In this document: piece after piece, positions 993 to 37,624 of the stretch
Layout: each line of letters begins with the position of its first letter
How positions within the stretch are numbered: the first letter of the stretch is position 1
Assembly (NCBI GenBank): GCA_045595105.1
Contig: JAZNZV010000165.1
Location: 1-39,688, forward strand
Source: Eubacteriales bacterium
GTDB taxonomy: Bacteria > Bacillota > Clostridia > Oscillospirales > SIG627
Length of the DNA stretch: 39,688 nt
Direction of reading: 5' to 3'
The notes under the pieces: model-generated
Database searches by the model: none
What the model was told of the DNA's origin: nothing
The model's input: the letters and a program-made list of their open reading frames with translations, nothing else
Made by a program: the position numbers and the translations under genes

Positions 993-2453
993 TTAGACTA
1001 TCGTCATGGTCTCTCCGTAATCGTACTGTGTCTCGCTCTGTCTCTCAACGCTGAAGTGATACTGCGGATGCATCGGTATAGCTTCTTCGTTGAACACTAC
1101 TTGCTCGCGAATGTGATGCGCTATTGCAAGCCCCATCATCATATCATCGTGACCGCCCTCGGGAGCTTCAATTCTGCCTTTCTCGTTGCGTATTATCGTC
1201 AATAGTTCTTCGAGTGTATCTCTGTCATTGATAGTGTCGCAATGCTCTCTCACTATCTCAATAAGCCGTGATATTATTGTCGGTCTTGTAAGGCTCGTTG
1301 TCTTGAATCCGAATCGTTTCTCAGTCTTGCCTGTATAGGTGTCTTGTGCTTCTCTTGTGTATTGCTTTGGATATCCGAGACGTTGTAACTCCATTATCGG
1401 ATAACTGTCAAAGTTAGCTTCTATGCCTATAAGAGCATTGCTATAATAGACTCCAAGACAGTACATCTGCTTGGCGTATTGATCGGAGTCAAATTGATGC
1501 TTGAGTACAGCAACTTGTTTACCCGTCTTAGCATCGAGGACATGACCCGTAAAAAAGTCACTGCCCTCTCCTGCCGTATCACCACCGATACAGTACTGAG
1601 TAAATGCAGGTTGATTCGGTACGCTGTATATCTTGATATAGCCATTCTTGTCATTGACCCATTGTATATTGCTTATCTTGAGTCCGTCATAGTCATACTT
1701 GAAGTATCCCGTCTTTAATGCTCTCGGTATCTCCTCAAGCCTTGCTTGCAATGCTCTTGCATCAAACACAGTTTTACCGAGGATACCCCACTTGCCGAGA
1801 CAGTAAACATCGTAAGTGTACTCGTCTGTGTTCTTGAGGTCTTCAAGGGCTTTTCTATCATCATCCGTCAAGAATTTATTATCCTTGTACGTTGAGAAGC
1901 ATACTGTCGCAAGCCCTGAGTCAATAAAGTGTGCCTTTATCCAATGCTGTATGTTTATCGGGTTGAATGATAATACTATCTGCTTCTTGGATTTACCACC
2001 ACGCAAACGGACTTTAAGCTGATTGACATCTGCCTCTTGACACTCTGTAGCTTCTTCGATCCATATGTCAGTAAGCTCTCCGTTTGAATAGGTGATTGAC
2101 TTTACCTTCTCGATATCGTCCAAGCCTTTAAAAACAACCTCGTTGCCCGTCAGCTTGCACACTATACGCATATCGGACTCATTGACCTTGAAATGCTCCG
2201 ACAGATTCCAATTCGAGATAACTTGCTTTAGGAGAGGGAATGTACTCGTTCTGTTGGTGTCTCCCGTATTACGCACTACAAGCAAATTGCACCTTGTCGG
2301 ATGGATAAGCTTATATATATATCTCTGCGCTATAAAATAAGACTTACCACTACTACCACCACCATAGAACACAAGATATCTATCCGTGTTATCGAGATAC
2401 GGCAAATAGACATCGTTAAAGACCTTCTTGGATAGCTTTATATTGACATTCAT
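993..2453 (-). CDS. terL: Terminase large subunit (PBSX/Terminase_3-like)
   Basis: 486 aa. Walker A FYGGGSSGKS near the N-terminus. ATGA overlap with terS. C-terminal nuclease-like acidic motifs (GGDTAGEG, GGHDD). Confidence 0.9.
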   Translation of the reverse strand: MNVNIKLSKKVFNDVYLPYLDNTDRYLVFYGGGSSGKSYFIAQRYIYKLIHPTRCNLLVVRNTGDTNRTSTFPLLKQVISNWNLSEHFKVNESDMRIVCKLTGNEVVFKGLDDIEKVKSITYSNGELTDIWIEEATECQEADVNQLKVRLRGGKSKKQIVLSFNPINIQHWIKAHFIDSGLATVCFSTYKDNKFLTDDDRKALEDLKNTDEYTYDVYCLGKWGILGKTVFDARALQARLEEIPRALKTGYFKYDYDGLKISNIQWVNDKNGYIKIYSVPNQPAFTQYCIGGDTAGEGSDFFTGHVLDAKTGKQVAVLKHQFDSDQYAKQMYCLGVYYSNALIGIEANFDSYPIMELQRLGYPKQYTREAQDTYTGKTEKRFGFKTTSLTRPTIISRLIEIVREHCDTINDRDTLEELLTIIRNEKGRIEAPEGGHDDMMMGLAIAHHIREQVVFNEEAIPMHPQYHFSVERQSETQYDYGETMTIV

Positions 2454-2884
2454 TCATCGCTCAACTCTATGTTGATGTTGACCTCACTATTGACATCTGC
2501 CTCTATACTCTGTTTTTCTCTCCATCCCTCAAAATTGTTGGATAGGTTAAACTTAGCACCATTTACTCCGTCTCGGTCATAGAGTCTTTCTTCTGCATAT
2601 CTCTCTATTTTTGCTTTAGCTTCTAAAATCGTGTCATTAAAATCTTCACTTCTTGCTTGATAATTTAATAATGCTTGTCTTGATTTAAAACCTAAAGCTA
2701 ATGCTAATCCCGTAATAGTCAAAGGTTTGGAATTATATAAGATAGGCAATCCATACTTGTCATAGATTATATTACCATCAGCATCTTTAAGTATTTCACC
2801 TTTACAATCATTGAAATACTTATCTATCTTCTCTTGTAATTCCTCTACTGTACTATATTTAGGTGGTCTACCTAAATTATCCAT
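2450..2884 (-). CDS. terS: Terminase small subunit (Terminase_2-like)
   Basis: 144 aa. N-terminal GRPPKY followed by HTH-like PLTITGLALALGFKSRQALLNY. Directly upstream of and overlapping terL. Confidence 0.8.
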   Translation of the reverse strand: MDNLGRPPKYSTVEELQEKIDKYFNDCKGEILKDADGNIIYDKYGLPILYNSKPLTITGLALALGFKSRQALLNYQARSEDFNDTILEAKAKIERYAEERLYDRDGVNGAKFNLSNNFEGWREKQSIEADVNSEVNINIELSDE

Positions 2885-2940
2885 GATATATACACTCCTC
2901 TCTATATGAATATAAATATATATATTATTTATATATAATT

Positions 2941-3072
2941 AAGCAAAAAGAAAAAGCATGATGCAATCACCATAGGCGTTTTCGGGGAACGCCCTCAAAG
3001 GAGGAGAGTACTTGCCGAGAGTCACGCCCAAATGAACAAACAACGCTCGTCTCGGTGGTGATGTGCATATGC
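2941..3072 (-). ncRNA. Candidate structured 5' leader of the late operon: three-way junction closed by a ~15-bp helix, followed by a U-tract
   Basis: On the minus strand GCAUAUGCACAUCACC (3072-3057) pairs with GGUGAUUGCAUCAUGC (2971-2956), with two 1-nt bulges. Inner hairpins are CCGAGA/TCTCGG (3015-3020/3050-3055) and GGCGTT/AACGCC (2975-2980/2988-2993). Followed by UUUUUCUUUUUGCUU (2955-2941). No credible ORF. Confidence 0.35.
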
Positions 3073-3088
3073 TTTGATACAAATCGCT

Positions 3089-3094
3089 ATTATA
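3089..3094 (-). promoter_or_regulatory. Candidate -10 box (TATAAT) of the late promoter, lacking a recognisable -35
   Basis: TATAAT on the minus strand about 17 nt upstream of the structured leader. Upstream hexamer is poor (TGATTT), consistent with activator dependence. Confidence 0.2.
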
Positions 3095-3156
3095 TATATA
3101 TCATAGATTTAAAATCATATGTTATACAAGATTGTCACTCATTTTACATCTTTTTG

Positions 3157-3188
3157 CAAAATAAAAAGCACTTGCTCTCGCAAATGCT
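3157..3188 (-). terminator. Intrinsic terminator downstream of the RHH gene
   Basis: Minus strand: AGCATTTGC-gaga-GCAAGTGCT (one G:U pair) followed by TTTTTATTTT. Confidence 0.7.
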
Positions 3189-3196
3189 TTAAATGA

Positions 3197-3385
3197 TTAT
3201 TTTGAATCTCTTTCAATAGTTTCTTTTATTGCCCTTTGGATAAATCCGTTTACTGACTCATTGTGTTTATCGGCGTGAGCCTTGATGATATCTTTTTGCC
3301 CCTTTGGGATTGTTAAATAAATTCGGTCATACGCTTTGTTGTTGTATTTTTGTTTAGCCTGCCAAGATGTTTTACTTTTACTCAT
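3197..3385 (-). CDS. Ribbon-helix-helix (Arc/CopG-like) DNA-binding protein, divergent from the + strand cassette
   Basis: 62 aa. Pattern KYNNKAYDRIYLTIPKG..IIKAHA....SVNGFIQRAIKETIERD fits strand-helix-helix. RBS AAAGGAG. Confidence 0.7.
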   Translation of the reverse strand: MSKSKTSWQAKQKYNNKAYDRIYLTIPKGQKDIIKAHADKHNESVNGFIQRAIKETIERDSK

Positions 3386-3412
3386 TGTTTAACTCCTTTT
3401 ATTATTTTTCTC

Positions 3413-3442
3413 ATTATATCACAAATGCACATACTGTCGCAA
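3413..3442 (-). promoter_or_regulatory. Promoter of the RHH gene (TTGCGA-18-TATAAT with TGA extended -10)
   Basis: Minus strand TTGCGA (3442-3437) and TGATATAAT (3421-3413). Operator O1 overlaps the -35. Confidence 0.5.
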
Positions 3443-3446
3443 GTAT
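3431..3446. promoter_or_regulatory. Operator O1: ATACTG-N4-AAGTAT (one mismatch from a perfect palindrome)
   Basis: Same half-site and spacing as O2. Confidence 0.5.
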
Positions 3447-3451
3447 CAATT

Positions 3452-3481
3452 TGCACAAAAAACGTCCCGAAACTTTGTGCA
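3452..3481. promoter_or_regulatory. Inverted repeat TGCACAAA-N14-TTTGTGCA between the divergent promoters
   Basis: Perfect 8-bp arms. Sits at about -40 to -70 relative to the cassette promoter. Shares TTTTGTGC with a half-site near the cI promoter. Confidence 0.35.
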
Positions 3482-3491
3482 TCATTCCGTC

Positions 3492-3520
3492 TTGACATAC
3501 TGCCGACAGTATGCTACAAT
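3492..3520 (+). promoter_or_regulatory. Near-consensus sigma70-type promoter of the + strand cassette (TTGACA-17-TACAAT)
   Basis: TTGACA 3492-3497, 17-nt spacer, TACAAT 3515-3520. About 35 nt upstream of the first RBS. Confidence 0.7.
3497..3512. promoter_or_regulatory. Operator O2: perfect palindrome ATACTG-N4-CAGTAT (7-bp arms CATACTG/CAGTATG, 3496-3513) filling the promoter spacer
   Basis: Read directly from the sequence. Overlaps the -35/-10 spacer of the cassette promoter. Confidence 0.6.
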
Positions 3521-3555
3521 AGAGGCACACCAAACGGAACGAAAGGAAAACAGAA

Positions 3556-3666
3556 ATGAAACAAGAGTATATCGAAAAAATCAAAGCACAACTCGAACAA
3601 TGCAACGACCTCGCACTACTTGATTTAATATTTAAAATAATGGGGAAGGCGGAAAAAATAAGTGAT
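3556..3666 (+). CDS. Small leader ORF (36 aa, helical)
   Basis: ATG 3556 preceded by GAAAGGAAAA. MKQEYIEKIKAQLEQCNDLALLDLIFKIMGKAEKISD. Overlaps the GTG start of the next gene. Below the ORF-track size cutoff. Confidence 0.4.
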
Positions 3667-4057
3667 TGAAATATGGAAAGATATAAAAGGTTACGAAGGA
3701 CTTTACAAGATTAGCAATACTGGAAAAGTTTTTTCGTGTAGGCTCAACAGAGAAATGGCTATCAACAAGCAATATTATTTATCTATCAATTTAAGCAAGA
3801 ACGGTAAACAAAAACACTTTTACATTCATAGACTTGTAGCTGAAACTTTTATCCCTAACCCCGAAAACAAAACAGATGTAAATCACATCGACCACAACCC
3901 CCACAACGCCCGAGCTGATAATCTCGAATGGACAACGCATTCGGAAAATATTTCTAAGTATCTTGAAACCGATAAATTTAGAAAGCTACTCAAACGAGAA
4001 TACACAATCAATTATTATAAAAATTTTTATAAAAATAAAGGAGATACCCAAAAATGA
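3662..4057 (+). CDS. HNH homing endonuclease (NUMOD4 + HNH_3 type)
   Basis: N-terminus IEIWKDIKGYEGLYKISNTGKV (NUMOD4). NHIDHNPHNARADNLEWTTHSEN (HNH). GTG start. Visibly AT-rich. Confidence 0.8.
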   Translation: MIEIWKDIKGYEGLYKISNTGKVFSCRLNREMAINKQYYLSINLSKNGKQKHFYIHRLVAETFIPNPENKTDVNHIDHNPHNARADNLEWTTHSENISKYLETDKFRKLLKREYTINYYKNFYKNKGDTQK

Positions 4058-4560
4058 CTTACTTCACGAACCCCACCACCCTCGAAGAACTCAAAAAGGA
4101 ATATCGCAAGCTCGCCCTCAAGCATCATCCTGACTGCGGTGGAGACACCGAGACCATGAAGAAGGTAAATGCCGAGTACGACATCCTCTTTGCGAGACTC
4201 AAGAACGTACACAAGAACAAGGACGGCAAGACCTACGAAAAAGCAACCGATGAAACGCCCGATGCATTTAAAGATTTGATAACCGCCCTCATGAAGATGA
4301 ACGGCGTGACCATCGAGGTTATCGGCTCGTTTGTATGGGCATACGGCAACACAAAACAGTATCGTGACGAACTCAAAAAACTCGGCTTTAAGTGGCACAG
4401 CGTTAAAGAGTGTTGGTACAAAGCTCCTGACGGATACAGAAGATACAGCAAGCACGAGTACAGCATGGACGAGATAAGAGATATGTACGGTGTGCAGTAC
4501 GAAGGAACGGGCAAAGCAGAAGAGAAGACCTACAGAGACAACAATCAGTACATAGCATAA
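4054..4560 (+). CDS. J-domain (DnaJ-like) protein with a C-terminal W-rich module
   Basis: LEELKKEYRKLALKHHPDCGGD with the HPD tripeptide at 4126-4134. C-terminus IEVIGSFVWAYGNTKQYRDELKKLGFKWHSVKECWYK. RBS AAAGGAG, ATGA overlap. Confidence 0.8.
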   Translation: MTYFTNPTTLEELKKEYRKLALKHHPDCGGDTETMKKVNAEYDILFARLKNVHKNKDGKTYEKATDETPDAFKDLITALMKMNGVTIEVIGSFVWAYGNTKQYRDELKKLGFKWHSVKECWYKAPDGYRRYSKHEYSMDEIRDMYGVQYEGTGKAEEKTYRDNNQYIA

Positions 4561-4609
4561 ATTAAAACGCTGTCCTATCGGCAAGACGGGGAGAATAAGG
4601 AGAAACAAA

Positions 4610-5185
4610 ATGGGACAAAGAAGCCAAATTTATATCAGATATGAAAATAAACTTGTAGTAGCAAATTATTATGGTTGGAATTACGGCGAAAGAATGATAA
4701 GCCGTGCACGTGGCATTATAGAATGGATAAAGGAATACAGCCAATTTTCTTTTATATGGGAAGATAAAAGCTATATGACAAAATTAAGCCGAATATGTGA
4801 CACAAATTTTGATATGCGTGATGTTGTGATCAGTTGCGACATTATAAAGGAGTGGCGAGAAGAATTCCCGCAAGAGCCTTTTAATGATTATGTGTTTAAA
4901 TATCAAGACAATAACAACGGACAATTATTTATAGATGTCAAAAAAGGCTCAAGCATAAAATACGCTTTATCATATAATCCCAACTATGCAAAAATATTAA
5001 ATTGTGAAGATTATTTAAACGAGGATTTAGGGAAAGATTGGCAACTCCCAACAGAGTCACTAACACAAGAAGATATTGATATCTGCAAAATGAATATCAA
5101 GTATATTTCCGACAACGCCACGCTTATGACCGCCGAAGAATTATATAGCTTTGTTAATTTTGAATATCAACCCAAAGGAGAATAA
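4610..5185 (+). CDS. Hypothetical protein (191 aa)
   Basis: Strong RBS AAGGAG. No family recognised. Confidence 0.7.
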   Translation: MGQRSQIYIRYENKLVVANYYGWNYGERMISRARGIIEWIKEYSQFSFIWEDKSYMTKLSRICDTNFDMRDVVISCDIIKEWREEFPQEPFNDYVFKYQDNNNGQLFIDVKKGSSIKYALSYNPNYAKILNCEDYLNEDLGKDWQLPTESLTQEDIDICKMNIKYISDNATLMTAEELYSFVNFEYQPKGE

Positions 5186-5197
5186 AAGAGAACGAAA

Positions 5198-5386
5198 ATG
5201 GACTTCACAAAATACAGCACCGAAGAACTTAACGCAATGCATTCAACAGCTTTTTCGGAATATTACAGATTAGCAACACAACCCCGACCCTGCAATTATC
5301 AAAAAGGCATGAGGTTTCCCGACCTTGAAAAAGCAACCGAGAAATTAAACGCAATAACAGACGAGCTTGAAAGGAGAATGAAATGA
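5198..5386 (+). CDS. Hypothetical protein (62 aa)
   Basis: ORF in operon context; weak RBS. Confidence 0.55.
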   Translation: MDFTKYSTEELNAMHSTAFSEYYRLATQPRPCNYQKGMRFPDLEKATEKLNAITDELERRMK

Positions 5387-5625
5387 TAGAAAAACTCAGA
5401 GTCGGCACTGTGATACTTGATAAATACAACAGAAAACTTATAGTAGTTGAAAGCGTACAAAAAGCAGGAGCAAACGGAGAAGCGTACACACTCTATAATC
5501 TTTACCCGCCAACCCAAAAACCAAAAAAAGCAACAGAATACGGGCAATCGTTAGGATTATATTATGAGCCGTGTTTATATATAACAGATAGCACGTTAAA
5601 AGAAATAACAAAACAAGCCAACTGA
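5383..5625 (+). CDS. Hypothetical protein (80 aa)
   Basis: ATGA overlap with the upstream gene; RBS AAAGGAG. Confidence 0.65.
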   Translation: MIEKLRVGTVILDKYNRKLIVVESVQKAGANGEAYTLYNLYPPTQKPKKATEYGQSLGLYYEPCLYITDSTLKEITKQAN

Positions 5626-5687
5626 CGAGTCTTTGAGAATTAAGACGAAGCCCGAGCGGTCAATCTCGGGCAGAAAAGGAGAAGAAA

Positions 5688-5876
5688 ATGAATTTGCTCG
5701 TAAATTACAGATTCAGCACCATCGGAGATTTGAGAAGATGGTTAGAAAAGAGAATGTGGGATTTTGAAGGACCCGAAGAATTCTACGAATGGCTCTCAAA
5801 TTACTTTGACGAGGGCAACACAATGACCGTTCGCGGGGAAGAATACGACTATTGGGCTTGTTGGGAATTGGTATAA
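5688..5876 (+). CDS. Hypothetical protein (62 aa, W/E-rich)
   Basis: RBS AAAGGAG. Preceded by hairpin CCCGAG-N8-CTCGGG. Confidence 0.65.
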   Translation: MNLLVNYRFSTIGDLRRWLEKRMWDFEGPEEFYEWLSNYFDEGNTMTVRGEEYDYWACWELV

Positions 5877-5902
5877 GATTGGTATAAGAAAGGAGTAAGA
5901 AC

Positions 5903-6091
5903 ATGAAATTCTACGCAGTAGTAAGCACCTTCTATGATGACGGCAGGACAACGGCTAACACTTTTACAGTTTGTGCCGACAGCAAGCCCGAAAGCACGTT
6001 CAAAAGCACAAAAAGATATGACCAATACGTTGACTTTTTCAGCGACCCTGCGGAAGCAGAAGAATACCGACAAAATACATTGAGAGCATAA
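5903..6091 (+). CDS. Hypothetical protein (62 aa)
   Basis: RBS AAAGGAG. Confidence 0.65.
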   Translation: MKFYAVVSTFYDDGRTTANTFTVCADSKPESTFKSTKRYDQYVDFFSDPAEAEEYRQNTLRA

Positions 6092-6104
6092 AGGAGAATG
6101 CAAA

Positions 6105-6332
6105 ATGAGCAAACAAGACATTATCGAAACCATGAGCAAAAGAGAAACAAGCGAAGCCTTAAAGAGAGCAAAAGCAAAGTACAAAGGCGAGAAGGTCGAA
6201 ACGCTCCGTGTAGACCTCTTCCCGACAGACGAGGACATCAAGCAACGTATCGCAGAACGTGTTGCAGACGGAGAGCCTAAAGCAACGTATATCAAGAGAC
6301 TTGTCCGAGAGGATATCAAGAGAGGAGAATAA
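6105..6332 (+). CDS. Second ribbon-helix-helix-like protein, paralog-like to 3197..3385
   Basis: 75 aa. AKAKYKGEKVETLRVDLFPTDEDIKQRIAERV....ATYIKRLVREDIKRG aligns by eye with the 62-aa RHH protein. RBS AAAGGAG favours 6105 over the 6098 frame. Confidence 0.6.
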   Translation: MSKQDIIETMSKRETSEALKRAKAKYKGEKVETLRVDLFPTDEDIKQRIAERVADGEPKATYIKRLVREDIKRGE

Positions 6333-6335
6333 ACA

Positions 6336-6626
6336 ATGAGAGCAATACTTAAAAAGGTCGGGGAAGCACCCAAAATCATCGAGATCGAAAACACTCTTGA
6401 AGCACTTCAAGATGCGGTCGGTGGATGGATTGAAGCAATCTATCTTGACAACAACGCTGTACTGATTTGTGACGAAGAAGGTAAGCTCAAAGGGCTACCG
6501 AGCAATTTCGTGACATCAAGTGACATCATCGTCGGGGATGTGCTTTTCGTCAGCGTAGCCGATGAAGACTTCACCGACATCACCGCAGAAGCTGAGCAGA
6601 CTGTCATGGATTTGCTTGGAGAATAA
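6336..6626 (+). CDS. DUF3846-like protein
   Basis: 96 aa. EIENTLEALQDAVGGWIEAIY....ICDEEGKLKGLPSNF....IVGDVLFV matches the remembered DUF3846 pattern. RBS AGAGGAG. Confidence 0.6.
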   Translation: MRAILKKVGEAPKIIEIENTLEALQDAVGGWIEAIYLDNNAVLICDEEGKLKGLPSNFVTSSDIIVGDVLFVSVADEDFTDITAEAEQTVMDLLGE

Positions 6627-6643
6627 AAGACAAAAAAGAAACG

Positions 6644-6668
6644 GGGATAGGGCATAAAGCCTTATCCC
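6644..6668. terminator. Bidirectional intrinsic terminator between the convergent cassette and the late-regulator gene
   Basis: GGGATAGGGC-ataaa-GCCTTATCCC (one G:U pair) with T-runs on both sides. The stem overlaps the stop codon of 6662..7120. Confidence 0.75.
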
Positions 6669-7120
6669 TTTTCGCTTCTCTTTTCGAGTATTGCTTGAAC
6701 GTTCTTCAGTGCTCGACCATGTGCCGTTGTAACGCTTGAATAGCTCATATCAAGCTCGTCCGCTACCTCAAACATCGTGAGATACTGCACATAGATTTTG
6801 TGAATGATATCGTACTCATAAGCATCAAGCAACTCAATCGTGCTTATGACCTCGGCACGAATCTCTATGAGTCTATCGATATCCTCGGTTATCTCTCGTT
6901 CAATGTCAACGTAACGAGCAATCGCATCAGCCATTGTCTGCCCGTTACCGCCACCACCCTTGACCCTCTCTCCGTCAAGTTTTGATGTGATATTCAGCGC
7001 AACCGCTTTCCATCTCTCAATCTCGATTAGCTTATTCTCTATAAGTCTATCAAGTTTCTTTAATTGTTCAAGAAAAGCCCTTGCTTCTTTACACTTTTTT
7101 GCCCTTCTCCCCATTATCAA
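6662..7120 (-). CDS. Late transcription regulator, DUF1492 / RinA-ArpU-like (sigma70 region-4-like HTH)
   Basis: 152 aa. N-terminal coiled coil. C-terminus YEYDIIHKIYVQYLTMFEVADELDMSYSSVTTAHGRALKNV. Last gene of the early operon. Confidence 0.65.
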   Translation of the reverse strand: MIMGRRAKKCKEARAFLEQLKKLDRLIENKLIEIERWKAVALNITSKLDGERVKGGGGNGQTMADAIARYVDIEREITEDIDRLIEIRAEVISTIELLDAYEYDIIHKIYVQYLTMFEVADELDMSYSSVTTAHGRALKNVQAILEKRSEKG

Positions 7121-7324
7121 TCAGCCCTTCCGTTGTGTCGGAGCTTCGGGCAACTCTGCCCACCACTCGACCATGTTATAGTATTTGTGCCTCGGAGATA
7201 TATCAAACGGATATTGGAATGTTACGCAATGCGTTCTCACGTTGATATTTCCGTACTTGTCACATATGAGATATTTTCCGTCCGTCTCAGGCATTCGGTT
7301 ATTTACGTTAATCCACTCAATCAC
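7121..7324 (-). CDS. DUF551-like small protein
   Basis: VIEWINVNNRMPETDGKYLICDKYGN. GTG 7324 preceded by GGGGGTGA (alternative ATG 7354). Confidence 0.55.
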   Translation of the reverse strand: MIEWINVNNRMPETDGKYLICDKYGNINVRTHCVTFQYPFDISPRHKYYNMVEWWAELPEAPTQRKG

Positions 7325-7562: not shown

Positions 7563-7863
7563 TTTCACCCTCCGTCATTTCTTTTATCCTTTTTTCAACA
7601 ACGAATTTAGGAATAAAAACAACTCCCATTTCTTCATTGTTATCGAGATAAAACTCCAAACACGATTTAACTTTCTTAATCTCCGCTTTCTGTCGGTTGA
7701 TAAGGTCGAGGGCATCTCTTTTTAATTTTGGGGCACATCGTTCACCACGATGATAGGCAGCTTCGTCAATATAATAACAACATTCACAACAAGCGAGACC
7801 ACCTCTAATACAACACTCCAAAGCCTTTATGACTTCCTCGTCCGTGTATTTACGTTCGTTCAT
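7540..7863 (-). CDS. Cys-rich hypothetical protein (107 aa)
   Basis: ALECCIRGGLACCECCYY....ERC. RBS GAGAGGTGA. Confidence 0.65.
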   Translation of the reverse strand: MNERKYTDEEVIKALECCIRGGLACCECCYYIDEAAYHRGERCAPKLKRDALDLINRQKAEIKKVKSCLEFYLDNNEEMGVVFIPKFVVEKRIKEMTEGENGIPKES

Positions 7864-7874
7864 TTAATCACCTC

Positions 7875-8078
7875 TCAATCATATGGATATAGTAATTTGT
7901 TCAGCGTATTTAACTCTCTCCGTAGCCTCACAATATCATTGCTTATCTGTGAGCGATTACGGATGCCCCACCAAGACGAGTCCTCGTCAATGTTATCGTC
8001 AATCGATTTGGCAAGTCTGTTCATGAGTTCCTTGCAGAATTTAATCTGCTCTTTTGCTTCTTTGCGCTTATCTTTCAC
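7875..8078 (-). CDS. Hypothetical protein (67 aa)
   Basis: GTGA overlap with the upstream stop; RBS GGAGGTG 7 nt upstream. Confidence 0.55.
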   Translation of the reverse strand: MKDKRKEAKEQIKFCKELMNRLAKSIDDNIDEDSSWWGIRNRSQISNDIVRLRRELNTLNKLLYPYD

Positions 8079-15828: not shown

Positions 15829-15949
15829 TTTCGTTCTCCTTCTTTAAGATTTCGTTTAGTACACGATAGAATTGCTCGCTCTTTATCGTCATTCCCTCGA
15901 TTGAGCTTTTTACTGCGCCATCTTGCATTATGTGAATGATGTTATACAT
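15809..15949 (-). CDS. Possible small ORF (46 aa)
   Basis: Hand-translated: MYNIIHIMQDGAVKSSIEGMTIKSEQFYRVLNEILKKENENDLPIL. Fills an otherwise non-coding gap and overlaps both neighbours. Confidence 0.3.
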   Translation of the reverse strand: MYNIIHIMQDGAVKSSIEGMTIKSEQFYRVLNEILKKENENDLPIL

Positions 15950-16472
15950 ATTTTTTAACTCCGATTTGATATTTGCACTTTAAGTGTTCCACGGTGCTTT
16001 TGTTGCTTTTTTCTAATAAGGTTTCAACCAAATCCAACAACGACAAATCATCGCACTTTTGACATTGTTCAAGAATTTTTCCGATGTAAAATTCCTTTGG
16101 TGTTAAATCTACACCTTGAATAAGCGGGGTCGGAATTCCGTCAGCATAAGGCGGTGTATTTTGAAAACAAGTTACACTTTTTTCGGTATCTTTGTAGTTG
16201 TACCCAATACCCCTTGTGGTGCTGTTTAACTTTTTCATCCACAAAAATTCTTTAACTCTCTCGGCTGGTGTTTCCATTTCGTCAAGAACGAAAAACGAAT
16301 AGTTTTCACCGTATTCATCAAAGTCTTTTTGCATATCTTCAACAGAATGTTTTCCGTTTCTTAACCTGATGATATGGTTCATATAGCGTTTATCAACTTC
16401 GCTACTACTACCGACATAAATTCTTTTTGTTTCGTTATGCTGAATTGCATATACTTTTCTCGGGTAGTTCAT
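15942..16472 (-). CDS. GIY-YIG homing-endonuclease-like protein
   Basis: KVYAIQHNETKRIYVGSSSEVDKRYMNHIIRLRNGKH. ATG 16472 after AGGAGAG (the track ORF extends into cro). Confidence 0.7.
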   Translation of the reverse strand: MNYPRKVYAIQHNETKRIYVGSSSEVDKRYMNHIIRLRNGKHSVEDMQKDFDEYGENYSFFVLDEMETPAERVKEFLWMKKLNSTTRGIGYNYKDTEKSVTCFQNTPPYADGIPTPLIQGVDLTPKEFYIGKILEQCQKCDDLSLLDLVETLLEKSNKSTVEHLKCKYQIGVKKYV

Positions 16473-16483
16473 TTTCTCTCCTT

Positions 16484-16502
16484 TCTGTGCTTTAAGCACA
16501 AT
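16484..16502. promoter_or_regulatory. Operator copy O_D: TCTGTGCTTTAAGCACAAT (7-1-7 palindrome TGTGCTT-T-AAGCACA)
   Basis: 19/19 identical to the site at 16736-16754. Lies between the cro stop and the GIY-YIG start. Confidence 0.55.
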
Positions 16503-16506
16503 CGAA

Positions 16507-16710
16507 TTACAAAAAAATAATATCGTCAACCGACATTTCGTAAATGGACGCAAGAGCCTTTGCGGTTACAATATCGGGCTGTGTAGTTTTATTTTCATAA
16601 CTCGCAAGGGTGTTTATGCTTATAGTTATGCCTTTTTCTTTAAGCCTTTCTTTTACCTCGGGTCTGCTTAATCCTGCATTTACTCGTGATGCTTTGAGTG
16701 TCATTCCCAT
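16507..16710 (-). CDS. Cro-like XRE-family HTH protein
   Basis: 67 aa. First gene of the leftward operon, divergent from the cI-like gene. LKASRVNAGLSRPEVKERL...INTLASYE. Confidence 0.75.
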   Translation of the reverse strand: MGMTLKASRVNAGLSRPEVKERLKEKGITISINTLASYENKTTQPDIVTAKALASIYEMSVDDIIFL

Positions 16711-16864: not shown

Positions 16865-17236
16865 GTGAGCAACAAAACAATATTTTCTACAAATTTAAAA
16901 AGATATATGGCTTTAAACGAAAAAAGTCGAAAAGACCTATCCGATGCTTTGGGAATTAGTTATTATACTGTAACTGATTGGGTAAACGGAAAAAAATATC
17001 CAAGAATGGATAAGGTTGAGAAATTGGCGAATTATTTCGGAATATTAAAATCCGATCTAATTGAAGAAAAGACGGAAGAACATCGAAATATGCAAAAAAA
17101 TAACGACATCATAACTGATGCCGTTGTAAAAATGCGTAATGACGAGCGTTTTCTCTCTATTGTGGAAAATTTACTTGCGTTAGATGCCGACAAATTGTCG
17201 ATAATCGAGCAAACCGCATTAGCTTTTAAGAAGTAA
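16865..17236 (+). CDS. cI-like XRE-family HTH repressor
   Basis: 123 aa, GTG start after AAGGAGGTGG. LKRYMALNEKSRKDLSDALGISYYTVTDWVNGKKYP. Divergent from the cro-like gene. Confidence 0.8.
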   Translation: MSNKTIFSTNLKRYMALNEKSRKDLSDALGISYYTVTDWVNGKKYPRMDKVEKLANYFGILKSDLIEEKTEEHRNMQKNNDIITDAVVKMRNDERFLSIVENLLALDADKLSIIEQTALAFKK

Positions 17237-17422
17237 TTTGTGGATTAAATCGAGTAGAGCAATATCGTTGCATTGTTCTAATAACTTAACAATTTCTGTT
17301 ATGTACTGTTCTTTCATAGAGGGAAAACATCCTTTCATGCGAGGTAGAACATTCGTTCTTAACAAGGATTATACAGAAAGCCCTTGTCGAAACATAGCGG
17401 AAATTGTTTACTTCACACTTTT

Positions 17423-17450
17423 TTCGAAATTTTATCAAGATTTGTACAAT
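17423..17450 (+). promoter_or_regulatory. Candidate internal promoter TTCGAA-16-TACAAT ahead of the membrane-protein and integrase genes
   Basis: Read directly from the sequence; TG lies adjacent to the -10. Confidence 0.3.
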
Positions 17451-17468
17451 AAGAATGAGGATTTAAAA

Positions 17469-17741
17469 ATGGAAAATGTATTTAACGTTGTAAGCAATAT
17501 GTTGTCTTTTATCTTTGACATAAGATTATTTGATGTTCCGCTTTACCTTTTTTATATCGGGATATCATGTATGATTGGTTACTGCATATCAATGTTTTTG
17601 ATTGGTTTCCCGTGTTCTATTTGGGAAGCAATTACCAAGAAAAAAGTCAACGAAGAAGGTCGAGAGAAAATCGTTTTCATACTTACTGTATGTTTAAGCA
17701 TTGCCTTTATATTAAGGGTTTTATACGAAAAAACAACATGA
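17469..17741 (+). CDS. Small membrane protein (candidate superinfection exclusion)
   Basis: ATG 17469 after GAGGA. 90 aa with 2-3 hydrophobic spans. Located between repressor and integrase. Alternative upstream starts at 17337 and 17238 lack an RBS. Confidence 0.55.
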   Translation: MENVFNVVSNMLSFIFDIRLFDVPLYLFYIGISCMIGYCISMFLIGFPCSIWEAITKKKVNEEGREKIVFILTVCLSIAFILRVLYEKTT

Positions 17742-17767
17742 ATTCAACACCAAAGGAGAAATGAAAA

Positions 17768-19180
17768 ATGAGAGTAGCACTATACCCACGTGTCAGCGGA
17801 CACGAACAAGAAGAGAATTATTCAATACCCGAACAGATTGACAGAATGAAAAAATATTGCGAGGCAAGAGATTGGCACGTTTACAAGGTTTATACCGATG
17901 CAGGATACACGGGGTCAAACATGGACAGACCAGCCTTGCAGACTATGATTAAAGATGTTGAAAAAGGCGTATTCGATATGGTGCTTGTTTATAAGCTCGA
18001 TCGGTTATCTCGTAGCCAAAAAGATGTATTGTATTTAGTTGAGGATGTATTTGACAAACACGGCATTTACTTTTCTTCTATGACAGAAAATTTTGATACA
18101 TCAACACCCTTTGGAAAAGCCATACTCGGTATTCTTGCAGTATTCGCACAGCTTGAGCGTGAACAAATCAAAGAGCGTACAATGATGGGAAAACAAGCGA
18201 GAGCAGAGGAAGGTAAATGGCATGGTTCTAAATGGTTACCCATCGGATATGATTATGACGGGGAAAACCTCGTCCAAAACGAATATGAGGTAATGCAGAT
18301 AAGAGAAATTGCGGACTTATTTTTAAAACGCACTCCCGTGAAAAAGATTGCGAAAATGGTTACCGAAAAAGGCTACCGACACAAGCATGGTGATGGTGAA
18401 TGGGATGCCAAGACCATAAGACGAGTTTTAGCAAACCAAACCAACATCGGCATGATAAAGCACCGAGACAAATACTATCAAGGAACACACAAGCCGATTT
18501 TCGACCAAAAGACATATGATGATATCATGGAGATAATGAACGAGCGAAGAGCGAAGTACGGCATAAGTTATAAACCGCACACCACGTTATTAGGTGGTAT
18601 GATTTACTGTAAAAATTGTGGTGCGAAATACGGAAAGCAACATAGCGGAAGCGGAATCCTTTATTACGCTTGCTATTCCCGAACAAAGAAAATGAAAGGC
18701 ATGATTAAAGACCCAAATTGCAGAAACAAGAATCACCGAATGGATAAGCTCGACAATGCTATTATTGCAGAAATCGGAAAATTGGCAATAGACAAAGACT
18801 ATATCGAACATCTCCGTCACAACAAGCCCGATAACAATGTAGCAGAAAAAGCAAAATCCATCACCCTTGAGATCGAAAAACTTAACGAACAAATCTCAAA
18901 AATGATGGATTTATACTCTATGGGGCATATGCCTCTTGAGATTATCAGCCAAAAGGTAACTGCAATCAACGAGACAAAAACGGCACTTGAAAAAGAATTG
19001 TCAGCGTTAAACGTGCCTGATACAGAGGACGATGTAATGCCGACAAAACAAATCCAAAGCCTTGCTACCTTGATGAACGATGAAGCCCTTACCCTTGAAG
19101 AAAAGAGAGCCATCGTACAATCACTTATTTATTATATCGAAATTGACGAAGAAAATGTATATATTCATTGGAAATTCTAA
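17768..19180 (+). CDS. int: Large serine recombinase (integrase)
   Basis: 470 aa. N-terminal resolvase domain ALYPRVSGHEQ...VYKLDRLSRS. Zinc ribbon CKNCGAKY...YYACYSR...CRN. C-terminal coiled coil. Confidence 0.9.
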   Translation: MRVALYPRVSGHEQEENYSIPEQIDRMKKYCEARDWHVYKVYTDAGYTGSNMDRPALQTMIKDVEKGVFDMVLVYKLDRLSRSQKDVLYLVEDVFDKHGIYFSSMTENFDTSTPFGKAILGILAVFAQLEREQIKERTMMGKQARAEEGKWHGSKWLPIGYDYDGENLVQNEYEVMQIREIADLFLKRTPVKKIAKMVTEKGYRHKHGDGEWDAKTIRRVLANQTNIGMIKHRDKYYQGTHKPIFDQKTYDDIMEIMNERRAKYGISYKPHTTLLGGMIYCKNCGAKYGKQHSGSGILYYACYSRTKKMKGMIKDPNCRNKNHRMDKLDNAIIAEIGKLAIDKDYIEHLRHNKPDNNVAEKAKSITLEIEKLNEQISKMMDLYSMGHMPLEIISQKVTAINETKTALEKELSALNVPDTEDDVMPTKQIQSLATLMNDEALTLEEKRAIVQSLIYYIEIDEENVYIHWKF

Positions 19181-19469: not shown

Positions 19470-20369
19470 TTATTTGAGCATACCATTCACTATATCTTGT
19501 ATCTCGCTGTAATCGTACCCAGCGTCCTCAAGCTTTTCTTTTCTCGCCTTGCCTTTTCCCCACTTGCCCTGAATGACTTCCTTTGCAATGGCAATGTTGC
19601 TTTTCTTCGTGAGCATGGCGTTGACTCGCTTCTGCACCTCTACAGCGTTATATCCTGCCTCGATAAGTAGCTTGATGCGCTCGTTGCCTACGCCCCACTC
19701 ACCTTTGATGACCTCTCTCGCAACCTCGTCAACCGACTTGAGCTTGGTAAAGCCGTTGAGTCCTGCCTTTTTGATGATGGACGGATAATCGACATAGACA
19801 TAGTCTTGGTCACACATGACTCCTGCGACCTTGTTTGTGCGGAGAGCGTTTGTCTCACCGCCAAACTGCCACATACCATAGTCACCCTTGTATGTGCAGT
19901 TCTTTGCCCATTGAGCAATCCACTTGTCATAGGATGCAAGCTTTTTCTCATGAGTATAGGTCTTGAGGAAATATGCCGTTGAGTAAATGCCGACATAATA
20001 TCCTGCGCTCTCCAAAGTCTCACAGAATGCGATGATGATATTTGTCAGCTTGTCCTTGCCGAGAGCCTTGAGCACCTTGTCCTCTACATCGAAGTAAATG
20101 GGATATTCAAAAGTCTTCCCCTTGAGCACGTTATTTATAAGGCAATTTGCTTCATTCTTTGCCTCTGCAACGCTTTCAGCCATAGAGTATAGGTAAACAC
20201 CCACGGGAAGGTTTCTCTCCTTGCAAGCCTTGTAAAACGTGTCAAAGCAAGTGTCCTTGTAAATCGTGTATGCTCCTCGGAGAATGACAAACTCGACTCC
20301 CTCGGCTTTTGCCTTGTCAAAATCGAATCCTCTCTGCCACTTGGAGACATCAATGCCGAATTTTCTCAC
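19470..20369 (-). CDS. Endolysin: GH25 muramidase with two C-terminal CW_7 repeats
   Basis: FGIDVSKWQRGFDFDKAKAEGVEFVILRG (GH25). Two copies of the E/K-V-I-x-G-x-WG-x-G-x-x-R motif. GTG start. Confidence 0.85.
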   Translation of the reverse strand: MRKFGIDVSKWQRGFDFDKAKAEGVEFVILRGAYTIYKDTCFDTFYKACKERNLPVGVYLYSMAESVAEAKNEANCLINNVLKGKTFEYPIYFDVEDKVLKALGKDKLTNIIIAFCETLESAGYYVGIYSTAYFLKTYTHEKKLASYDKWIAQWAKNCTYKGDYGMWQFGGETNALRTNKVAGVMCDQDYVYVDYPSIIKKAGLNGFTKLKSVDEVAREVIKGEWGVGNERIKLLIEAGYNAVEVQKRVNAMLTKKSNIAIAKEVIQGKWGKGKARKEKLEDAGYDYSEIQDIVNGMLK

Positions 20370-36686: not shown

Positions 36687-36714
36687 AAAAAGGGAGAGCG
36701 TTGTTTGCTCTCCC
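36687..36714 (-). terminator. Strong intrinsic terminator immediately after the major capsid gene
   Basis: Minus strand: GGGAGAGC-aaacaac-GCTCTCCC followed by TTTTT. Confidence 0.8.
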
Positions 36715-36791
36715 TCTTTCTTGGCGTTATTAAGCTATACGCTTTGTATTCCCTTGTAAAAGGGCAAGTCTACGCCTATATCAAAATCCCC

Positions 36792-37589: not shown

Positions 37590-37624
37590 AGGTTTTTAAC
37601 CTTCCTTTCGTGTGAAGGGAAGCA

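Follow-up and report, generated by a model that had tools for sequence, protein, structure and literature searches.

The block at positions 3197-6668 of the phage DNA analysed here (39,688 nucleotides, hereafter the window) is a plus-strand operon of ten ORFs within a minus-strand genome. Judging from comparisons of related loci, it appears to be a horizontally exchangeable, accessory island of temperate siphophages of gut Clostridia. With moderate confidence, we infer that it is a repressor-gated island of early genes, which would serve either the establishment of the phage or anti-defence. The original prediction had described an autonomously regulated accessory system, acting as a second immunity or antirepressor region or as an anti-defence or host-takeover cassette; of these, a role in anti-defence or host takeover agrees best with the results.

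Anatomy and control region of the antisense block

ORF, skew and signal analyses confirm an antisense block with its own promoter, a divergent ribbon-helix-helix (RHH) gene and terminators (Table 1). The AT skew changes from about -0.15 to +0.3 precisely over 3.5-6.5 kb. Every cassette ORF is intact and preceded at the right distance by an RBS of the GGAG or AAGGAG type, in agreement with the strong RBSs predicted. All ORFs that had been listed exist where they were placed; the small leader ORF, however, encodes 37 and not 36 amino acids. The only other plus-strand genes, coding for a cI-like HTH protein, an ORF without assigned role and a serine integrase, form the lysogeny block at 16865-19180, and the remainder of the genome is minus-strand, as had been noted. 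One long plus-strand ORF at 36705-37724 overlaps minus-strand ORFs amid a region of minus-strand skew and is therefore taken as a shadow ORF. The GC content of the cassette is mosaic and lies below the genome average, and neither an integrase nor a transposase is found among its genes.

Table 1. Features of the cassette, its control region and its flanks (a dot marks features without a strand).
Feature	Position	Strand	Remarks
Small terminase gene terS (GP3_package)	2450..2884	-	Left flank; Pfam 1.2e-19
Intrinsic terminator after the RHH1 gene	3165..3190	-	11-pair stem, then T-run
RHH1	3197..3385	-	62-aa Arc/Mnt-like RHH protein, divergent from the operon
Promoter-like site for RHH1	3413..3442	-	TTGCGA-18-TATAAT with upstream TG; 10/12 positions
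Predicted operator, type B, imperfect copy	3430..3447	.	CATACTGTCGCAAGTATC; over -35 of RHH1 promoter
Predicted operator, type A, perfect palindrome	3452..3481	.	TGCACAAA-N14-TTTGTGCA; between the two promoters
Operon promoter	3492..3520	+	TTGACA-17 nt-TG-n-TACAAT; near-consensus sigma-70, 11/12 positions
Predicted operator, type B, perfect palindrome	3496..3513	.	CATACTG-N4-CAGTATG; inside operon promoter spacer
37-aa ORF	3556..3669	+	Occupies the conserved RBS/start used by the J gene of L040
Free-standing HNH homing endonuclease	3662..4057	+	NUMOD4 + HNH_3; Pfam 7e-12 and 8.5e-10
J-domain protein	4054..4560	+	Conserved anchor gene; DnaJ 8e-8
191-aa acidic protein	4610..5185	+	Unnamed family, >500 members; N-terminus MGQRSQIY invariant
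62-aa protein	5198..5386	+	Weak matches to PADLOC PDC-S04 (8e-6) and phrog_12747
80-aa protein	5383..5625	+	No match in Pfam, PHROGs, NCBIfam
62-aa acidic protein	5688..5876	+	pI 4.3; no family match
62-aa protein	5903..6091	+	No family match
RHH2	6105..6332	+	75-aa distant paralogue of RHH1
DUF3846 protein	6336..6626	+	Very acidic (pI 4.05, net charge -14); Pfam 9e-26
Two-way intrinsic terminator	6643..6669	.	Common to operon and convergent DUF1492 gene; 11-pair stem, T-runs on both strands
DUF1492 / sigma-70 region-4-like late regulator	6662..7120	-	Right flank; convergent with operon

The operon promoter is the top site in 5 kb, and shuffled intergenic sequences never scored as high. The palindrome in its spacer has a spacer-shuffle P of 0.0085, and the copy over the -35 region of the RHH1 promoter, which deviates from it at two positions, is the only other type B match with up to two mismatches in the 39.7 kb. 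The type A palindrome occurs once in the window and is found with identical arms and spacing at the same place in the related phage L040 (7326-7357). The control regions of the two phages are homologous, including the -10 region of the RHH1 promoter-like site, and L040 encodes an RHH1 homologue (57% identity) at the same place; the type A palindrome is kept, whereas the type B position carries a different palindrome in L040, and the beta-strand of RHH1 differs between the two phages as well. The type B arms of the window recur in L060. A perfect -35 element with a 17-nt spacer lies upstream of 11 to 12 of 14 related cassettes, and in six of nine distinct cassette promoters the spacer contains a palindrome whose arms measure 6 nt or more. 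The autonomous regulation that had been proposed is thus corroborated by a homologous layout in L040 and by the recurrence of the same design in other cassettes.

RHH1 matches phrog_13890 (5.7e-21), the PHROG 'Arc-like repressor' (1e-5) and, below Pfam's cut-off, RHH_7 (2.5e-4); its PDB matches are weak, and every one is an RHH protein. It is a candidate repressor of both promoters. RHH2 is classed as an RHH protein solely by its similarity to RHH1 (28% identity, E 3e-4) and might be an in-operon autoregulator; which of the two proteins would bind which predicted operator is a guess. Homologues of RHH2 are encoded last in the cassettes of L039 and L006, others occupy another hot spot in further phages, and related cassettes close with an HTH or RHH gene. 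The terminator following the RHH1 gene is predicted to shield the terS leader from RHH1 transcription.

A recurrent insertion site and a gene pool shared with plasmids

In L002 and L003, the closest packaging relatives (sharing 83% identity with the window in terL and 71% in terS), a DUF1492-type regulator gene lies directly upstream of terS and the site is empty. The block is hence no core module conserved in all relatives, which would have refuted the original interpretation, and its moron-like status is supported. Antisense cassettes occupy this site in no fewer than twelve further phage contigs and are either led by the J gene (L040, L048, L050, L052-L056 and L058-L061) or devoid of it (L006 and L039). 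The phages concerned use three terminase types, namely GP3_package/Terminase_3, Terminase_2, and Terminase_6N with a P22 portal, and an HMM search detected the DUF1492-like regulator on the far side at 13 loci, which represent at least nine distinct phage loci. Among 59 protein families encoded by 13 cassettes, the J protein is the only shared one and is present in 12 of them. The site between the late activator gene and terS is therefore a recurrent hot spot of insertion, with the J gene as its anchor.

The J protein consists of a truncated J domain with the HPD motif, which scores 32.7 bits against a DnaJ cut-off of 27.8 and is also matched in the PDB, and a conserved C-terminal alpha/beta domain. 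HPD is invariant across 31 homologues. The family of the C-terminal domain comprises 1622 representative clusters, and every protein checked combined it with a J domain; a structure search with the AF2 model (pLDDT 80) revealed no neighbour of this domain in the PDB. The AF2 model of the 191-aa protein (pLDDT 91) likewise has no PDB match, and structure comparison of the two best AF2 models gave no informative neighbour. Homologues of the 191-aa protein are encoded in long arrays ending at an integrase, together with DUF932, LPD24, HicA and Bro-N/ANT proteins. Searches of the cassette proteins against Pfam, PHROGs and NCBIfam yielded nothing beyond the J, HNH and DUF3846 families and matched no characterised anti-defence protein, and PADLOC detected no known defence system in the cassette. 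The HNH gene, which is also recognised by PADLOC as 'homing endonuclease' (1.6e-30), is present in only one of the 13 cassettes and has a GC content of 0.33 versus 0.47 for the J gene; it is a selfish, hitch-hiking passenger outside the conserved island. The 37-aa ORF, of which L040 encodes a 48%-identical homologue elsewhere and which is missing from the other cassettes, probably arrived together with it, and both would represent a later homing-endonuclease insertion.

The gene pool of the island extends to plasmids. The J family is found in 2743 plasmids, 2217 of which are conjugative, in same-strand arrays beside relaxase genes. In IncX4 and IncX3 plasmids, the J gene opens a series of same-strand genes that closes with taxA/ddp1 and the relaxase gene, and in IncX4 it adjoins the replication initiator gene rep; oriTs of IncX plasmids are located near taxC and near rep (PMC3402527). 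An Acinetobacter plasmid carries the J gene in a same-strand array adjoining T4CP and MobF genes, and a pCF10-like plasmid combines it with ssb, a nuclease gene, a toxin-antitoxin pair and an AcrIIA9-family gene. The large ORFs next to J genes are either terminases, encoded on the other strand, or T4CP, TopoIII and resolvase, encoded on the strand of the J gene. A DUF3560 gene follows the J gene in sister cassettes, and members of the DUF3846, DUF3560 and 191-aa families are also encoded in arrays of conjugative elements; in a conjugative-type array of Vescimonas, the DUF3846 domain is fused within a 590-aa ArdA-annotated protein. Leading regions of conjugative plasmids are recognised as anti-defence islands whose genes share one orientation; the study describing them does not mention J domains in its main text, and its supplement has only a five-member DnaJ family (PMC11541004).

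Possible roles of the island

The strong operon promoter would need host RNA polymerase only. Since phage DNA entering a new cell is naked and meets no repressor, the operon should fire immediately. Binding of the operators by RHH1, which would come from its divergent, autoregulated promoter, and perhaps by RHH2 would then shut the operon down and keep it low in the lysogen. The HPD-containing J domain is expected to dock on the host Hsp70 DnaK, to which the C-terminal domain should supply a client, while the remaining genes would encode small and often acidic effectors whose repertoire changes rapidly. The job of the island would thus be to establish incoming DNA in a new host by host takeover, counter-defence or both. 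Such a role is considered most likely because the J, DUF3846, DUF3560 and 191-aa families are found in leading or accessory arrays of ICEs and conjugative plasmids, next to ssb, toxin-antitoxin and anti-CRISPR genes.

As for timing, expression of the operon in the lysogen is equally conceivable. The block might then be a moron of lysogenic conversion, from which the host benefits by superinfection exclusion or anti-phage defence and whose expression RHH1 merely tunes. The classic moron anatomy, the empty site in relatives, the orientation shared with the cI and integrase block, the low GC content and the weak match of the 5198-5386 protein to a PADLOC defence-candidate family (8e-6) agree with this idea. 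However, PADLOC recognised no known defence system, an operator within the spacer of a consensus promoter together with a dedicated divergent repressor points to tight steady-state repression, and the anchor gene is common to plasmid leading regions, which are active on entry. Constitutive service to the lysogen hence seems unlikely.

The J protein could also act as a housekeeping helper that recruits DnaK to replication-initiation or assembly proteins, the small genes being ordinary early genes. Chaperone dependence of lambda and plasmid initiators is well established: release of lambda P from DnaB and activation of RepA and pi require DnaK and DnaJ. The HPD motif and the position of the IncX4 J gene beside rep are in line with such an activity, and the plasmid J protein could serve remodelling of the replication initiator instead of defence evasion. 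In the phage, however, the cassette and the replication module are well separated and occupy opposite strands, the cassette is dispensable, given that the closest packaging relative lacks it entirely, and its cargo turns over too quickly for a housekeeping set. Plasmid J genes are moreover mostly accompanied by ssb, toxin-antitoxin and AcrIIA9-type genes rather than rep in the contexts seen, which makes a housekeeping function rather unlikely.

A second immunity region of the P22 immI type, in which RHH1 would correspond to Mnt, RHH2 to Arc and a new antirepressor would inactivate the cI-like repressor, is quite improbable. It would account for the divergent RHH gene facing a strong promoter whose operator lies between -35 and -10, for the second RHH paralogue within the operon and for the Bro-N/ANT proteins in arrays with 191-aa homologues. 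Yet Pfam and PHROG profile searches detected no ANT, Bro or KilAC domain in the cassette, as the original prediction had already remarked, and RHH2 is encoded by the ninth gene rather than the first. The cargo varies in almost every relative and cI-type genes do not track it, the sole conserved gene is frequent in conjugative plasmids as well, where there is no phage repressor, and a search of the 39.7 kb found no cassette operators elsewhere in the genome, including the immunity region. What endures of the original interpretation is therefore the autonomous regulation, the moron-like status and an immI-like logic, but not the second immunity or antirepressor region; the recurrent, J-anchored hot spot and the passenger nature of the HNH gene had not been noticed in it.

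That the block is selfish cargo without phage function, brought in by the HNH homing endonuclease or left as a decaying mobile-element fragment, would suit the HNH gene unique to the window cassette and the mosaic GC content, but is highly improbable given the many phages with an HNH-less cassette at this site, the intact ORFs with their RBSs, the conserved promoter/operator design and the lack of an integrase or transposase.

Comparison with known systems

Several known systems resemble the establishment or anti-defence island favoured here. Rki of phage RB43, which Perrody et al. reportedly described in 2012 as a phage-encoded J-domain protein, is likewise small, carries an HPD J domain and would be expected to hijack host DnaK; the cassette J protein, however, has a different C-terminal domain, belongs to a family common to plasmids and is encoded by a temperate phage infecting Firmicutes. 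Morons, as conceived by Hendrix and Juhala, share with the cassette the bounding promoter and terminators, the atypical composition and the position between genes adjacent in relatives, but they comprise one or two genes instead of ten, and the cassette has its own repressor/operator circuit as well as a site and an anchor gene that recur across three terminase types.

In P22 immI (mnt/Pant-arc-ant), the Arc operator is located at Pant between -35 and -10. The analogy drawn with this region holds for the regulatory logic, as a strong promoter with an operator at the equivalent position is faced by a divergent RHH gene; in addition, both operons contain a second RHH gene and are situated among late genes, away from the main immunity region. 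In contrast to immI, the cassette encodes no Ant-type antirepressor domain, has its second RHH gene near the 3' end and carries a multi-gene, variable cargo whose conserved member is a J-domain protein. Operons of the acr-aca type and clustered anti-defence loci also combine a very strong promoter with an inverted-repeat operator, variable small genes and a small DNA-binding autoregulator, which is an RHH protein in the window cassette and an HTH or RHH protein encoded last in its sisters; they differ from the cassette, which has a J anchor, no recognised Acr or Aca homologue, and an RHH regulator that is partly encoded divergently.

The role proposed here resembles that of the anti-defence islands that conjugative plasmids carry in their leading region (Samuel et al. 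2024, PMC11541004). Unlike these, the cassette resides in a double-stranded phage genome without oriT or relaxase, uses an ordinary sigma-70 promoter with an operator instead of a single-strand (Frpo-type) promoter and contains no known anti-defence gene. Both, however, are one-orientation arrays of small, mostly uncharacterised genes. The J gene itself occurs next to relaxase or T4CP genes in same-strand arrays, in one case together with ssb, toxin-antitoxin and AcrIIA9-family genes, and DUF3846, DUF3560 and the 191-aa family are part of a broader pool of genes found in conjugative elements. Like the leading-region genes, the cassette would be expected to give a burst of expression as its DNA enters a repressor-free cell.

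Anatomy and control region of the antisense cassette

The contig represents a complete temperate siphophage-type genome of ~39.7 kb, in which ten + strand ORFs, referred to here as the cassette, are located between terS and a DUF1492-type late regulator gene (see table). As stated in the original prediction, the rest of the genome is encoded on the - strand except for the block containing the cI-like gene and the integrase, and the + orientation of the cassette is confirmed by its ORFs, their ribosome binding sites, which are of the GGAG type at each of the ten, and the AT skew, which changes sign precisely across this stretch. The predicted near-consensus promoter could also be confirmed: it matches at 11 of 12 positions, is the top-scoring site within 5 kb, and shuffled intergenic regions never equal its score. 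Both terminators were found as hairpins, whose coordinates differ by a few bases from those first assigned, and the leader ORF exists, but encodes 37 rather than 36 amino acids. A megablast search of positions 2400-7200 against INPHARED phages yielded no match, and neither Rfam nor tRNA scans detected anything in the window. Outside of the cassette, the terS leader (2935-3085, - strand) is predicted to fold into a long-range stem (MFE -45 kcal/mol, z -3.2; none of 200 shuffled sequences folds equally well) without an Rfam match and might serve as leader of the late operon or as part of the packaging site, and the tail region contains one unusually long ORF of 2566 aa (21693-29393, - strand).

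Features of the phage genome, the cassette and its control region
Feature	Position	Strand	Description
terL	993-2453	-	Terminase_3
terS	2450-2884	-	GP3_package
Terminator-like hairpin	3190-3165	-	
RHH1	3197-3385	-	divergent 62-aa gene
Type B palindrome, imperfect	3430-3447		two mismatches; over -35 of RHH1 promoter
Type A palindrome	3452-3481		TGCACAAA-N14-TTTGTGCA; between the two promoters
Operon promoter	3492-3520	+	TTGACA-17-TG-n-TACAAT; 11/12 positions match
Type B palindrome, perfect	3496-3513		CATACTG-N4-CAGTATG; within spacer of operon promoter
Ten cassette ORFs	3556-6626	+	each with GGAG-type RBS
37-aa ORF	3556-3669	+	
HNH gene	3662-4057	+	NUMOD4, HNH_3
J gene	4054-4560	+	DnaJ
191-aa gene	4610-5185	+	
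RHH2	6105-6332	+	75 aa
DUF3846 gene	6336-6626	+	PF12957
Terminator-like hairpin	6643-6669		T-runs on either strand
Late regulator	6662-7120	-	DUF1492 / sigma-70 region-4-like
cI-like HTH gene, uncharacterized ORF, large serine integrase	16865-19180	+	sole + strand block besides cassette
Lysin	19470-20369	-	GH25 + CW_7

The divergent region between RHH1 and the operon comprises 170 nt and carries two classes of palindromes, which are putative operators. The genome contains no further type B site with up to two mismatches, and the type A palindrome occurs only once in the window. A homologous control region was found in phage L040, whose RHH1 homolog is 57% identical and whose entire control region can be aligned with that of the window. 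L040 keeps the type A palindrome with identical arms and spacing and carries another palindrome, TCTTGCGCAAG, where the window has type B sites; this palindrome yields six matches in L040 (three sites on both strands) versus 0.38 expected. The predicted DNA-reading β-strand of RHH1 reads DRIYLTIP in the window and KRINLNVP in L040. Since the palindrome and the β-strand both differ between the two phages, we infer that RHH1 binds the type B sites.

The assignment of the divergent gene as RHH-like is supported by a PHROGs match to Arc-like repressors (1e-5), a sub-threshold Pfam match and weak PDB matches, all of which are RHH proteins. The proposed second RHH paralog stands in part: RHH2 is a distant paralog of RHH1 (28% identity, E 3e-4); however, no evidence for an RHH fold independent of this paralogy was found. 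Both proteins are candidate autoregulators of the cassette; RHH2 may be a dedicated cassette autorepressor, although its homologs also occupy a tail-integrase hot spot in other phages. In two loci from ~40-kb phages (L170, 7001-9580; L169, 7001-7186), they are found between the tail operon and a serine integrase gene, and a TROVE/Ro60 plus vWA gene follows in L170. Control of the cassette by cI was rejected, as no cassette operator was found in the immunity region.

The cassette appears to be a self-contained operon with a strong, presumably operator-gated promoter; its site is polymorphic, its cargo changes fast, and its anchor gene, the J gene, is common to the cassette and conjugative elements. 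We consider the chances slightly better than even that it is an establishment or counter-defense island. When the DNA enters a repressor-free cell, the operon promoter would fire, the J protein would dock on DnaK via its HPD motif and its C-terminal domain would deliver or remove a client, and the small cassette proteins would act on host functions or defenses. RHH1, possibly together with RHH2 and a reader of the type A palindrome, would subsequently close the promoter and hold it closed in the lysogen. Alternatively, the cassette could be a conversion moron, which is expressed in the lysogen. Two features of morons are present, namely its own promoter and terminators, which are consensus-level sequence matches, and the insertion between genes that are adjacent in relatives (contigs L002 and L003); however, constitutive expression from the prophage would be at odds with the putative operator in the promoter spacer, and we regard this reading as unlikely.

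Proteins encoded by the cassette

All domain calls of the original prediction (NUMOD4 and HNH_3, DnaJ with HPD, DUF3846) were confirmed. The members of the J protein family have around 162 amino acids and consist of a J domain, which lacks helix I and contains the invariant HPD, and a conserved C-terminal α/β domain with the motif EVIGxFxWVSGNTKxxKDxLKxLGFKWH..CWY. The J gene product scores 32.7 bits against Pfam DnaJ (cut-off 27.8), a profile search identified J domains of solved structure (1.6e-7), and H25-P26-D27, which is invariant across 31 homologs, lies between helices II and III. The fold resembles Tim14 across 40 residues; the AF2 model (pLDDT 80) gave structural matches through the J domain only, and Foldseek returned J-domain matches and, apart from these, only weak matches to phosphatase cap domains. 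The J protein is predicted to be a co-chaperone of the Hsp40 type, which would stimulate the ATPase activity of DnaK/Hsp70. With the C-terminal domain as query, 1622 representative clusters were obtained. Among the ten longest proteins checked, five contain a detectable J domain and none a fusion to any other domain. A role as morphogenesis chaperone was rejected due to the plasmid homologs, the antisense position and the sigma-70 promoter. It could also be speculated that the cassette has a housekeeping role and assists replication or assembly as a chaperone module, which we consider quite unlikely.

The 191-aa protein belongs to an unnamed family of more than 500 members with the invariant N-terminus MGQRSQIY. 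Its model is confident (pLDDT 91); however, Foldseek identified no PDB neighbor (best TM 0.2), just uncharacterized viral proteins, and a PDB profile search of the family gave only chance EF-hand-like matches (E 0.07). An exact look-up of the 191-aa protein retrieved no record besides the source contig, and tblastn against phages gave no match. DUF3846 is covered over its full length by PF12957 (90.5 bits, cut-off 27.5), and the protein is highly acidic (pI 4.05, net charge -14). None of the cassette proteins matches a known defense system or a named NCBIfam family, no CRISPR-Cas inhibitor was matched in general libraries, and recognized anti-defense, ssb, psi or methylase genes are missing from the window cassette. 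In literature searches, nothing was found on the function of DUF3846, IncX dnaJ or J-domain proteins of phages, and a paper on polyvalent proteins names LPD24 alone of the domains in question.

The HNH gene encodes a free-standing protein with matches to NUMOD4 (7e-12) and HNH_3 (8.5e-10) in Pfam and to 'homing endonuclease' in PADLOC (1.6e-30); it is sporadic and missing from the other 12 cassettes. In L040, the J gene begins right at the ribosome binding site and start codon taken by the 37-aa ORF in the window. Because of its low GC content (0.33 versus 0.47 for the J gene) and its homing-endonuclease profile, the HNH unit appears to be a selfish element that was inserted later. A function as cos-packaging HNH protein was rejected, since the NUMOD4/HNH_3 domains assign the protein to the homing type and its gene is on the wrong strand and found in this cassette only. 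The 37-aa ORF has a 48%-identical counterpart in a 58-aa ORF of L040 (20320-20496, - strand) beside a cI-like gene, and may therefore be a genuine small protein or a fragment carried along with the HNH gene. In the early region, a 203-aa ORF (15942-16553, - strand) with a weak GIY-YIG nuclease match (E 1.4e-4) may be a second homing-endonuclease-like gene.

It had further been suggested that the cassette might be an antirepressor or second immunity region like immI of P22. The regulatory analogy stays good, as a divergent RHH gene is combined with a putative operator between -35 and -10 of the operon promoter. However, an Ant-, Bro- or KilAC-type domain is absent from all ten ORFs (Pfam, PHROGs, NCBIfam), and RHH2 is the ninth ORF rather than the first and its RHH assignment is weak, so that two of the three features that mark such a region are missing; we regard an immI-type antirepressor region as improbable. 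That the whole cassette is selfish junk seems very improbable.

Insertion hot spot and promoter design in related phages

The site is empty in the IMG/VR contigs L002 and L003, in which terL (83% identity to the window) and terS (71%) are conserved and a DUF1492-like regulator gene on the same strand precedes terS at a distance of around 180 nt, without an intervening cassette. The block is hence not a conserved core module of all relatives, and the comparison between the DUF1492 gene and terS suggested in the original prediction revealed a polymorphic site, which can be empty, J-led or J-less. J-led cassettes were found in at least a dozen contigs (L040-43, L048/49, L050, L052-L056, L058-L061); in all of them, portal, terL and terS share a strand and are followed by an opposite-strand cassette opening with the J gene and by a DUF1492-like regulator gene. 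J-less antisense cassettes occupy the same site in L006 and L039, and each of these closes with an RHH2 homolog. The packaging modules of these phages are of different types (GP3_package/Terminase_3; Terminase_2; Terminase_6N with a P22-type portal); therefore, the position is not merely inherited synteny of a single lineage, and the site is an insertion hot spot rather than a core module. Clustering of 13 cassettes gave 59 protein families, of which the J protein alone is common (12 of 13); the 191-aa family is present in three and RHH2 in two of them, and the HNH gene and the 37-aa ORF are confined to the window cassette. Six contigs (L042, L043, L049, L055, L056, L084) begin or end within the cassette or at its boundary, L042 between terS and the RHH1 homolog, which could reflect strain heterogeneity at the hot spot or physical genome ends.

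The promoters of these cassettes follow a common design. For 11-12 of 14 J-led cassettes, the best match combines an exact TTGACA with a spacer of 17 nt and is usually located 70-100 nt upstream of the J gene. In six of nine distinct promoters, the spacer harbors a palindrome whose arms are 6 nt or longer (individual shuffle P 0.0075-0.065), L040 being a seventh with 5-nt arms, and the palindrome sequences vary from phage to phage. Divergent regulators are of the RHH type in the window, L040 and L052 and of the HTH type in L056 and L060. RHH genes are also found within the operon in L052 and L060 and as its last gene in L048, and HTH genes as last gene in L053-L059. In L048, three tandem 10-nt repeats (A[T/C]AGTCACAA; 7850-7880) lie immediately upstream of the cassette promoter; as this cassette lacks a divergent repressor gene, they may be a different kind of operator.

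Link to conjugative elements and comparison with known systems

A tblastn search with the J protein against PLSDB identified 2743 plasmids, of which 2217 are conjugative, including IncX3 and IncX4 plasmids of Escherichia and Klebsiella and plasmids of Acinetobacter and Enterococcus. In IncX4 and IncX3, the J gene opens a same-strand run of small uncharacterized genes, which closes at taxA/ddp1 and the relaxase gene and in IncX4 also holds hicAB. In IncX plasmids, an oriT is located near taxC and a second one near the replicon (PMC3402527), and the run is thus bracketed by origins of transfer. The same arrangement is found upstream of the T4CP and relaxase genes of an Acinetobacter MOBF plasmid. 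In a pCF10-like E. faecalis plasmid (L168; NZ_CP119162.1, 8001-13943), the J gene shares one same-strand array with DUF3850, ssb, thermonuclease, relB/yafQ, pcfM, an AcrIIA9-family gene and pcfJ. When 44 J loci were compared, the first large ORF upstream of J was found on the opposite strand in 23, at least 11 of which have a terminase there, and on the same strand in 21, with T4CP, topoisomerase III and serine recombinase recurring and one zeta toxin. Other cassette families show similar links: DUF3846 occurs within an ArdA-annotated protein of 590 aa, which is encoded in a Vescimonas array together with TopoIII and DUF3849, DUF3560 directly follows J in sister cassettes, and 191-aa homologs are found in one-way arrays of 30 genes with DUF932, LPD24, DUF5983, HicA and Bro-N/ANT, which close at an integrase. 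One ICE-like array with a 191-aa homolog carries an inserted IS605 OrfB/TnpB gene (Cas12f1-like_TNB; L045, 4355-5458), which its sister L044 lacks.

Tailed phages eject the last-packaged end first, as established for lambda and SPP1. Packaging presumably begins at terS and heads away from the cassette; the cassette would then be among the first few kb to enter the cell, irrespective of cos or headful packaging. It would enter promoter first and around 10 kb ahead of the cro/cI switch. It is tempting to speculate, with considerably less than even confidence, that this antisense cassette next to terS is a counterpart in phages to the leading region of plasmids and the J protein an establishment factor common to phages and conjugative plasmids, which might hand a host protein, such as a defense or stress sensor, or a factor bound to the incoming DNA to DnaK. 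Such a role would account for the conserved position and orientation in phages with three terminase types, for a cargo that evolves as in an arms-race island and for the finding that this gene also opens arrays beside oriT. A duller alternative for position and orientation is insulation from late read-through.

If the equivalence with leading regions holds true, an antisense J-led block with an operator-gated consensus promoter between the late activator gene and terS would be a signpost for new effectors, leading to counter-defense or host-takeover genes in uncultured gut phages, where nearly all of the 59 families are uncharacterized. One widespread two-domain protein would tie phage establishment to that of plasmids, including the IncX3/IncX4 resistance plasmids, and would be a concrete study target, possibly for blocking plasmid spread. 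Furthermore, selection on gene order relative to the DNA-entry end would become testable in phages as in plasmids.

The logic of the cassette is already covered by morons, immI, acr-aca loci and leading-region islands, and the cassette therefore does not represent a new category. No description was found of its specific combination of a terS-proximal antisense hot spot with a plasmid-shared J anchor and a promoter with an operator in its spacer. Strong host-type promoters that can be closed by a small repressor are known from P22 Pant with Arc and Mnt and from acr-aca operons, and the cassette promoter, which a small cassette-encoded repressor may shut, would follow the same logic. Plasmid leading regions are one-orientation islands enriched in anti-defense genes expressed on entry (PMC11541004); J domains are not discussed in that study, whose tables list only one DnaJ family with five members. 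Unlike a conjugative leading region, the element described here is a phage, which encodes terminase, portal, lysin and integrase and has neither relaxase nor oriT, and it is homologs of the cassette genes, not the cassette itself, that are located in such regions. The anti-defense and ssb-type genes of leading regions are absent from the cassette, yet they co-occur with J in plasmids and with DUF3846.
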